Below are positions 5,203 through 7,922 of a stretch of DNA of 64,000 bases, in pieces; position 1 is the first letter of the stretch, and every line of letters starts with the position of its first letter. The DNA is taken from NCBI RefSeq assembly GCF_056712565.1, contig NZ_CM160072.1. One strand, 5' to 3'. The notes under the pieces were generated by a model that had not been told where the DNA came from, ran no database searches, and saw nothing but the letters and a program-made list of their open reading frames with translations. The translations under genes were made by a program, and so were the position numbers.

Positions 5203-5865
5203 ATGTTGCGCATTATCGATACAGAAACCTGCGGTTTGCAGGGAGGGATCGTAGAGATTGCCTCTGTTGATGTCATTGACGGAAAAATCGTCAATCCCAT
5301 GAGCCACCTGGTGCGTCCCGATCGTCCTATTAGTCCACAGGCGATGGCGATTCATCGCATCACCGAAGCCATGGTCGCCGATAAACCGTGGATTGAAGAT
5401 GTGATCCCGCACTATTACGGTAGTGAATGGTATGTCGCGCATAACGCCAGCTTTGACCGCCGCGTACTGCCTGAAATGCCCGGTGAGTGGATTTGCACTA
5501 TGAAACTGGCCCGTCGTTTGTGGCCAGGGATCAAGTACAGCAATATGGCGCTATATAAAACACGGAAGCTCAATGTACAGACGCCGCCGGGCCTGCATCA
5601 TCACCGCGCGTTGTATGACTGTTATATCACCGCCGCGTTGCTTATCGATATTATGAACACCTCTGGCTGGACGGCAGAACAGATGGCCGATATCACCGGA
5701 CGTCCATCGTTGATGACGACCTTCACCTTTGGCAAATACCGTGGCAAAGCGGTTTCCGACGTTGCCGAACGCGATCCGGGCTATCTGCGCTGGTTGTTTA
5801 ATAACCTCGACAGCATGAGCCCGGAGCTGCGTTTAACACTGAAACATTATCTGGAAAATACTTAA
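5203..5865 (+). CDS. exoX: Exodeoxyribonuclease X (DEDDh 3'-5' exonuclease)
   Basis: N-terminal IIDTETCG exonuclease motif; 220 aa matching ExoX. Confidence 0.93.
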
Positions 5866-7922
5866 TCCGCTGACTGAGCGGGTAATGTTCCCTGCGCCAG
5901 CGCGACCAGAAAAGCATATTCCATCGCTACGCCTTCGTACGATTTGAAGCGACCAGATTTACCGCCATGACCTGAGTCCATGTCGGTACAGAGCAATAAA
6001 AGATGGTCATCGGTTTTCAGCTCGCGCAATTTAGCGACCCATTTTGCCGGTTCCCAATATTGCACCTGAGAATCGTGTAAACCGGTCGTTACCAGTAAAT
6101 GCGGATAAGCCTGTGCGGTGACGTTGTCATACGGGCTGTAGCTTTTCATATACTCGTAATATTGCGGATCCTGCGGATTCCCCCACTCTTCAAATTCGCC
6201 GGTGGTAAGAGGAATTGATTCATCCAGCATTGTTGTTACAACATCAACAAACGGTACCTGGGCGATAACGCCGTGGAACAATTCCGGGCGTTGATTAATC
6301 GCAACGCCCATCAACATCCCCCCCGCACTCCCGCCCATCGCATAACAGAGCGAAGGAGAGCCATAGCCCAGTTTTAACAATGCATCGCAGGCATCAAGAT
6401 AATCATTAAACGTATTTTTCTTCTTCAGAAATTTACCGTCCTCGTACCATTGTTGCCCCAGCTCACCGCCGCCACGAACATGGACAATGGCGTAGACAAA
6501 TCCACGATCCAACAAACTCAAGCGGCTAAAACTGAAATCGGCATCAATACTTGCGCCGTAAGAACCGTAGCCATACACCAGCAGCGGGTTGTGTCCTTTG
6601 CGAAAATGTTTGCGATGATAGACCAGCGAAACCGGAACTTCGACGCCATCACGGGCGACTATCCACAGGTGTTCACTGCGGTAATTCGCCGCATCAAAAC
6701 CAGGAACTTCCGTTTGTTTTAATACACGACGCTCACCGGTATCCATATCCAGTTCAAACAAAGTATCTGGTGTGGTCATGGACGAATAACCATAACGCAA
6801 TCGCGCGGTTTCAGGTTCTGGATTGTAGGCAATCCAGGTCACATAGGCCGGAGCATCAAAGGCAATGCCAATGACTTCCCGGGTCTTGCGGTTAATTTGC
6901 CGCAAACTGGTTAACCCGCGCTGACGCTCTTCAACCACCAGCCAGTCGGTAAACAGCGTAAACCCTTCCAGCATAATGTTATCACGTGGCGGAATTAACT
7001 CTTCCCACTGTTGCTCATCACGCATACGGGTACGGTATAAGCCAAAGTTTTTACCGTGGCGGTTGGAACGCAGATAAAACCGATGCTGGTAGTGATCAAG
7101 GCTGTATTCGTGATCTTTGCGGCGAGGCAGAAAAACAAACGGCTCGGCATCGGCCATTTCCGCGTCCAGCAGGCGAACTTCACTGGTGGTGGAGCTGGCC
7201 AGATGAATGACCACATAATGCTTCGAGGTCGTTTTATGCAGGCTGACGTAATAGGTATCGTCTTTTTCTTCGTAAATCAGTTTATCTTGCGATGCTGGCG
7301 TACCGATGGCGTGACGCCAGACCTGATAAGGCAGCAGCGTCACTGGATGCTTGCGAACATAGTAGAAAGTCCAGGAGTCATTTGCCCAGACAAAGCTGGG
7401 TTCAACGTTATCCAGCAGTTCCGGGTACCAGTTACCTGTTTCCAGATTACGAAAACGAATGCCGTACTGCCGTCGGGAAAGAAAATCTTCTGCCAGTGCC
7501 ATAATGGTGTTATCTGGCGTAATCGCCATTCCGCCCATCGAATAAAACTCACTATGAGCCGCGCGCTTGTTGGCATCGAGCAATGTTTCCCACTCGTCCC
7601 ACTCTTCACTGAACGCCGATTGACGCTGGTAGATAGCATATTCACAGCCTGGTTCATAAATATGCCGATAGCGGTAGCCATTTTTGATGTAGGGCGCAGA
7701 AACTTCTCGTTGTGGAATGCGGTCGATGATTTCCTTTAAGATGCGATCCTGCAAGGCTTGTTGCGAGGCCATCACCCGATGACCGTAACTATTTTCTTGT
7801 TGCAGATAGTCCAGGACTTCCGGCTGAGAACGCGTATCGTCCCGCAGCCAGTAGTAATTATCGATGCGCGTATCGCCATGAAGCGTCATGGCGTGGGGAA
7901 TGCGGGCGGCTTTTGGTAGCAT
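5862..7922 (-). CDS. ptrB: Oligopeptidase B (protease II), S9 prolyl oligopeptidase family
   Basis: 686 aa; GGSAGG active-site serine motif; matches PtrB. Confidence 0.95.

Follow-up and report, generated by a model that had tools for sequence, protein, structure and literature searches.

The convergent exoX and ptrB genes of Escherichia coli: an ordinary 4-bp stop codon overlap whose transcripts likely end within the partner gene

When two genes converge so tightly that their stop codons overlap, where do their transcripts end, and does the resulting antisense RNA matter to either gene? The exoX and ptrB genes of Escherichia coli raise this question within the stretch of DNA analyzed here (64,000 nt of contig NZ_CM160072.1, RefSeq assembly GCF_056712565.1; hereafter the window). 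On the plus strand, exoX (5203..5865) encodes the 220-aa exodeoxyribonuclease X and stops with the TAA at 5863-5865. On the minus strand, ptrB (5862..7922) encodes the 686-aa oligopeptidase B and stops with a TAA that is the reverse complement of the TTA at 5862-5864. The bases T5862, T5863, A5864 and A5865 form the palindrome TTAA, a shared tetramer (5862..5865) that holds both stops, one on each strand. The coding sequences thus overlap by 4 bp (5862-5865), and two positions are common to both stop codons themselves (junction sequence, 5845-5885: CATTATCTGGAAAATACTTAATCCGCTGACTGAGCGGGTAA). In K-12 MG1655, RefSeq places exoX at 1926120..1926782 (+) and ptrB at 1926779..1928839 (-) (b1844/b1845), again with a 4-bp overlap, the shared tetramer being TTAG rather than TTAA. 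The gene names were confirmed from the RefSeq annotation of several E. coli chromosomes that are 100% identical to the window at this locus, and all but one of 5426 complete E. coli genomes (5425) carried the exoX-ptrB locus. As reported previously (PMC3946193), exoX is the second gene of a yobB-exoX operon, whose sigma-70 promoter, in the spacer between holE and yobB, is constitutive. A functional link between ExoX, a DNA exonuclease, and PtrB, a peptidase, is not obvious.

A preliminary description of the locus, made from its sequence, had reported the 4-bp stop overlap, and this is borne out by the open reading frames, the sequence and the RefSeq annotation. We considered whether a miscalled stop or gene might nevertheless have created an unreal overlap, and found no point in favor of such an artefact. 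Both stops are unambiguous, both reading frames are full-length with strong Pfam matches (RNase_T and ExoX-like_C in the exoX product; Peptidase_S9_N and Peptidase_S9 in the ptrB product), the RefSeq annotation is identical, and the two genes are conserved across the Enterobacteriaceae. The sequence, reading frames and domains together refute an annotation error, to which we assign a negligible probability.

Overlaps of this kind are well known. Convergent overlaps of 4 nt, formed by CTAA, TTAA, CTAG or TTAG, make up a recognized peak in the distributions of overlap lengths, and these YTAR tetramers are the modal class among convergent overlaps (Lillo & Krakauer, 2007; PMC2174442). The same study put the number of convergent overlaps in E. 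coli at 58 and predicted a rho-independent terminator in only 20% of the genes involved. The exoX/ptrB pair belongs to this class, in that two real genes lie tail to tail with both stops embedded in a single YTAR tetramer, and we see no essential difference from the other members; what the pair adds is that the 4-bp overlap alternates with a discrete 19-bp state in relatives, as described below. Similar junctions occur nearby. By the RefSeq annotation of a strain that is almost identical, the window has eight convergent junctions, and the spacer was 1 nt or less in three of them: exoX/ptrB (-4), yebW/pphA (0) and yebB/ruvC (1). The yebW/pphA junction reads TAA|TTA with 0 nt between the stops (1395-1400) and yebB/ruvC reads TAA-C-TTA with 1 nt (26005-26011); a scan of the window gave no hairpin-plus-U terminator candidate at either. 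The overlap of exoX and ptrB is therefore an ordinary feature, already annotated and already known, and not a statistical oddity. As a side observation, strain ZJ3920, a near match to the window, has its DUF72 gene yecE split by an 11.1-kb insertion carrying recombinase, tape measure and baseplate genes; the window has no such insertion (~30896-30902).

To describe the junction across the family, ExoX was used to scan one genome per species, yielding 80 enterobacterial loci, and distances were taken from the 77 in which both genes are intact. In every one of these, exoX and ptrB lie tail to tail. The stop-to-stop distance was -4 in 36 genomes, -19 in 21, 0 in 8 and +12 in 3; the others were small and scattered, and the whole range ran from -19 to +38 nt. 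The two commonest states share a reading frame, and the exoX stop accounts for both. Where a pyrimidine precedes an exoX stop of TAA or TAG, the resulting YTAR also stops ptrB, whereas a TGA stop, or a G before the stop, makes ptrB five codons longer and carries it to a back-up stop. In the window this in-frame ptrB back-up (TTA on the plus strand, 5847..5849; read on the minus strand) falls within CAT TAT, the invariant His-Tyr codons of ExoX, and it is the stop that is used in the 21 genomes with the 19-bp overlap. Conserved ExoX codons keep this back-up stop in place, and the junction therefore alternates between the -4 and -19 states. Within the genus, TTAR was invariant in 10 of 10 aligned Escherichia sequences, and the next 12-15 nt, which encode the C-terminal tail of PtrB, were hypervariable. 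Among the 5426 complete E. coli genomes, the tail allele of the window (AQSAD, 5866-5880) occurred 381 times, the K-12 allele (ATPAD) 2235 times and other alleles ~2800 times; the sequence flanking the tail codons was 95-100% identical within E. coli. The pattern in these alignments is that of a long-standing junction, its spacer short or absent, drifting among the permitted stop configurations; a precisely conserved device would look different. Two further observations concern ptrB itself, which carries an annotated frameshift in E. coli A134_1EC and is apparently truncated in Citrobacter amalonaticus, where PtrB residues 1-305 alone align. In such lineages, ptrB seems to be dispensable.

How, then, is transcription terminated at a junction of this kind? 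The preliminary description held that the overlap leaves no room for a terminator. This holds for the intergenic space, and neither a consensus scan of 4400-8900 nor an RNAfold-based scan for hairpins followed by U-runs gave a canonical intrinsic terminator at or near the junction. A terminator may still be located within the opposing gene. The RNAfold-based scan did call its positive controls, the purT/eda bidirectional terminator and the pykA/lpxM terminator. The former lies elsewhere in the window (11143-11197), where purT and eda/kdgA are separated by a textbook bidirectional intrinsic terminator, ATGCCCGATCGAGGATCGGGCAT, between A and T runs. The exoX/ptrB pair shares the convergent context of purT/eda but differs from it in having neither a spacer nor a GC-rich hairpin between A and U tracts, and no GC-rich hairpin with an adjacent U-tract on both strands is present at the junction.

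The nearest approach to such a structure is a small hairpin, uCCGCUgacugAGCGGg, at 5866..5882, which can form on both strands directly past the exoX stop, in the last ptrB codons (PAQSAD). If it were a hidden bidirectional intrinsic terminator, both polymerases would halt at the stops with essentially no antisense extension. Its GC-rich stem of 5-7 bp adjoins the shared stops on both strands, a U-rich run (AUUAAGUAUUUUCC) follows the stem on the minus strand, and the window, K-12/EC958 and MOD1 alleles share the CCGC...GCGG core of the stem, with differing loops. Against this, the plus strand has no adjacent U-tract, the tail there being GUAAUGUU, and the U-rich run of the minus strand starts 8 nt past the stem. 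In E. coli TCM3e1 the stem is disrupted, E. albertii and other genera lack it, the fold is no better than those of shuffled sequences (z -1.5 and -0.7), and the hairpin was called neither by the terminator scan nor by the RNAfold-based scan that found purT/eda and pykA/lpxM. Moreover, the plus-strand RNA extends ~470 nt farther in published bicyclomycin (BCM) data, which include no Term-seq 3' end at the hairpin (PMC7815308). We therefore rejected the hairpin as a cryptic terminator and regard this explanation as very improbable. A second, longer hairpin (5763-5838, in the 3' coding region of exoX) folds better than shuffles on the minus strand (z -3.09); it was rejected as a conserved RNA element because a 14-species consensus fold reached -4.5 kcal/mol with no covariation. 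No Rfam families were found near the junction. Elsewhere in the window, Rfam matches above the gathering score lie at 2185-2329, 33492-33534, 37470-37777 and 49668-49745, and the families matched are the overlapping RyeA/SdsR sRNA pair, ES036, MicL (inside cutC) and C0465. Promoter-like and terminator-like consensus matches in 4400-8900 were not commoner than in shuffles, and none was used as evidence.

With neither intergenic space nor an intrinsic terminator at the junction, each transcript is expected to end inside the other gene. For the exoX strand, published data locate a candidate end. In Supplementary file 2 of Adams et al. (2021; PMC7815308), a region at K-12 1927253 (+), antisense to ptrB by their classification, is given as one of bicyclomycin-sensitive termination by Rho, with a Rho score of 6.3 (p 3.4e-10). 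In untreated cells, reads across this site fell from 82 upstream to 12 downstream, compared with 140 and 129 with BCM. Aligned with K-12, the window keeps the same offset, 1920917, at all positions beyond the yobB-exoX spacer, which puts the apex of the Rho region at 6336 (+), ~470 nt past the exoX stop and inside antisense ptrB; since 800-nt windows were compared in that study, the apex position is coarse. The same region coincides with the strongest C-rich, G-poor stretch of the ptrB antisense RNA, a rut-like tract at 6266..6345 on the plus strand (C32/G14 in 80 nt), as would be expected upstream of a Rho-dependent termination zone. The tract contains the antisense of the catalytic GGSAGG motif of PtrB (aa 530-535; 6318-6335). 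The C/G ratio of this tract is above 1.5 in 77-85% of 75 enterobacterial loci, the peak along the 2-kb ptrB antisense RNA. From its composition, we infer that the tract is used as a rut site; the BCM sensitivity of the region is itself published. The RNA past the exoX stop resembles other untranslated or antisense RNAs that are terminated by Rho (PMC7815308) in being untranslated, C-rich, G-poor and BCM-sensitive, with 6.3-fold read-through under BCM. It differs in where the rut-like tract is placed, namely within the catalytic-site codons of the neighboring gene, in antisense, and not in an intergenic 3' UTR. The Term-seq lists of the same study contain no 3' end within K-12 1926000-1927999, and exoX and ptrB are not mentioned in the SMRT-Cappable-seq and TRS supplements. 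Some of the plus-strand reads antisense to ptrB could derive from an internal antisense promoter instead of exoX read-through. Promoter-like sites lie at 5833-5862 and 6374-6403, but sites of this kind were not commoner than in shuffles.

The transcript of the ptrB strand may run farther. Minus-strand RNA past the ptrB stop has no tract in which C exceeds G for ~560 nt, and then a weak one at ~5300-5180. Adjoining this, ~620 nt past the ptrB stop and antisense to exoX codons, is a hairpin followed by a T-run (CCTGCAAACCGCAGG TTTCTGTATC; 5228..5242 on the minus strand), the sole terminator-like site to follow ptrB. Scan matches of this kind were not commoner than in shuffles, and we consider the hairpin a weak candidate for the end of the ptrB transcript. 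No Rho region on the minus strand antisense to exoX was reported by Adams et al. (PMC7815308). Because neither a rut-like tract nor a terminator-like hairpin is encountered for ~560-620 nt, ptrB read-through may cross all of exoX. Farther along the same strand, Adams et al. (2021; PMC7815308) list two sites, at K-12 1925232 and 1925038 (~4315 and ~4121 in the window): a strong Term-seq 3' end that is antisense to holE and, a short way upstream of yobA, a Rho region. The minus-strand RNA at these sites could reflect either long ptrB read-through or an internal promoter.

The preliminary description had also proposed that each transcript extends antisense into the other gene, and three lines agree with this: the geometry of the junction, the BCM-sensitive RNA antisense to ptrB (PMC7815308) and a published catalogue of overlapping transcripts. 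In that catalogue, exoX-ptrB is listed among 165 convergent E. coli excludons (ExcludonFinder, NAR 2025; PMC12288877), pairs whose transcripts overlapped in at least 50% of 58 MG1655 transcriptomes. The list also includes yebW-pphA. We take the overlap of the 3' ends of the exoX and ptrB transcripts, sense against antisense, to be real and, from the geometry, at least 4 nt long. Although we found no publication specific to this pair in the literature searched, its transcriptional overlap is not a new idea, having been published for it as a generic claim.

Whether the overlap couples the expression of the two genes is a separate matter. Convergent excludons (Toledo-Arana & Lasa, 2020, PMC7154746; PMC12288877) are neighbors on opposite strands with overlapping transcription units, which describes exoX and ptrB equally well, and the pair could be a functional excludon in which the overlap is maintained for mutually exclusive expression of ExoX and PtrB, through collision of RNA polymerases, RNase III cleavage of the duplex, or both. 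Its presence in the published E. coli excludome is in keeping with this, as is the finding that excludon pairs, considered as a class, are less frequently co-expressed in single cells and show higher synteny (PMC12288877). The spacer of 38 nt or less between tail-to-tail genes in 77 of 77 intact enterobacterial loci, and the possibility that ptrB read-through spans all of exoX, may be added to these points. However, convergent excludons are defined by mutually exclusive expression or RNase III processing, while exoX/ptrB is placed among them by an overlap that is a trivial consequence of its overlapping coding sequences. ExcludonFinder requires overlapping transcription-unit boundaries, and a pair with overlapping coding sequences satisfies this almost automatically, nearly by construction, when both genes are expressed. 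Functional evidence in that study is at the level of the class, and validation of double-stranded RNA by p19 was not feasible for convergent pairs (PMC12288877). Furthermore, the overlap length drifts from -19 to +38 nt without constraint, the functions of ExoX and PtrB are neither related nor opposing, read counts are low (82 per 800 nt; PMC7815308), and exoX-sense read-through is removed by Rho within ~0.5 kb. Considering these points, we think it unlikely that exoX/ptrB is a functional excludon.

The same evidence bears on coupling in general. Because reads are low, exoX-sense read-through is clipped by Rho, junction length drifts and the functions are unrelated, we judge a meaningful coupling of exoX and ptrB expression to be possible but unlikely. 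On the strength of the few read counts, the effect on expression of polymerase collision or of duplex cleavage by RNase III is probably small. A further variant would have selection keep the spacer-less junction as an asymmetric switch, in which ptrB read-through silences the whole of exoX and the reverse read-through is clipped at the Rho site antisense to GGSAGG. Were this so, exonuclease X would be silenced whenever ptrB was induced. We hold this to be more doubtful still than a functional excludon.

The reading that we favor, and consider likely, is that exoX and ptrB are unrelated convergent core genes with an annotated 4-nt stop-stop overlap, that their stop codons drift near neutrality, and that their transcripts come to an end within the partner gene. 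Stop codon drift in a junction without a spacer, found throughout the Enterobacteriaceae sampled, would most likely leave a near-neutral overlap. A YTAR tetramer serves as a stop on both strands, and an exoX stop of TGA or a preceding G sends ptrB on to its back-up stop, producing the -4 and -19 states. The yobB-exoX transcript would run past the exoX stop; there, release of the ribosomes would expose the untranslated C-rich tract antisense to GGSAGG to Rho, and termination would probably follow ~0.4-0.6 kb into ptrB, in the region for which BCM sensitivity is published. The ptrB transcript, in turn, would extend antisense into exoX, possibly along the whole 663-bp gene. Two points run counter to neutrality, namely that the spacer-less layout is conserved family-wide and that excludon pairs show higher synteny (PMC12288877); both could reflect selection.

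As for what the junction means for these bacteria, the overlap of exoX and ptrB is of little import in itself, being present in every reference annotation, belonging to a textbook class of compact convergent junctions and showing a transcriptional overlap that is already catalogued. If interference specific to this pair were demonstrated, it would amount to one more excludon on the existing list of 165. Its value, which is modest, is as a clean example of transcription termination in a gene pair without intergenic space.
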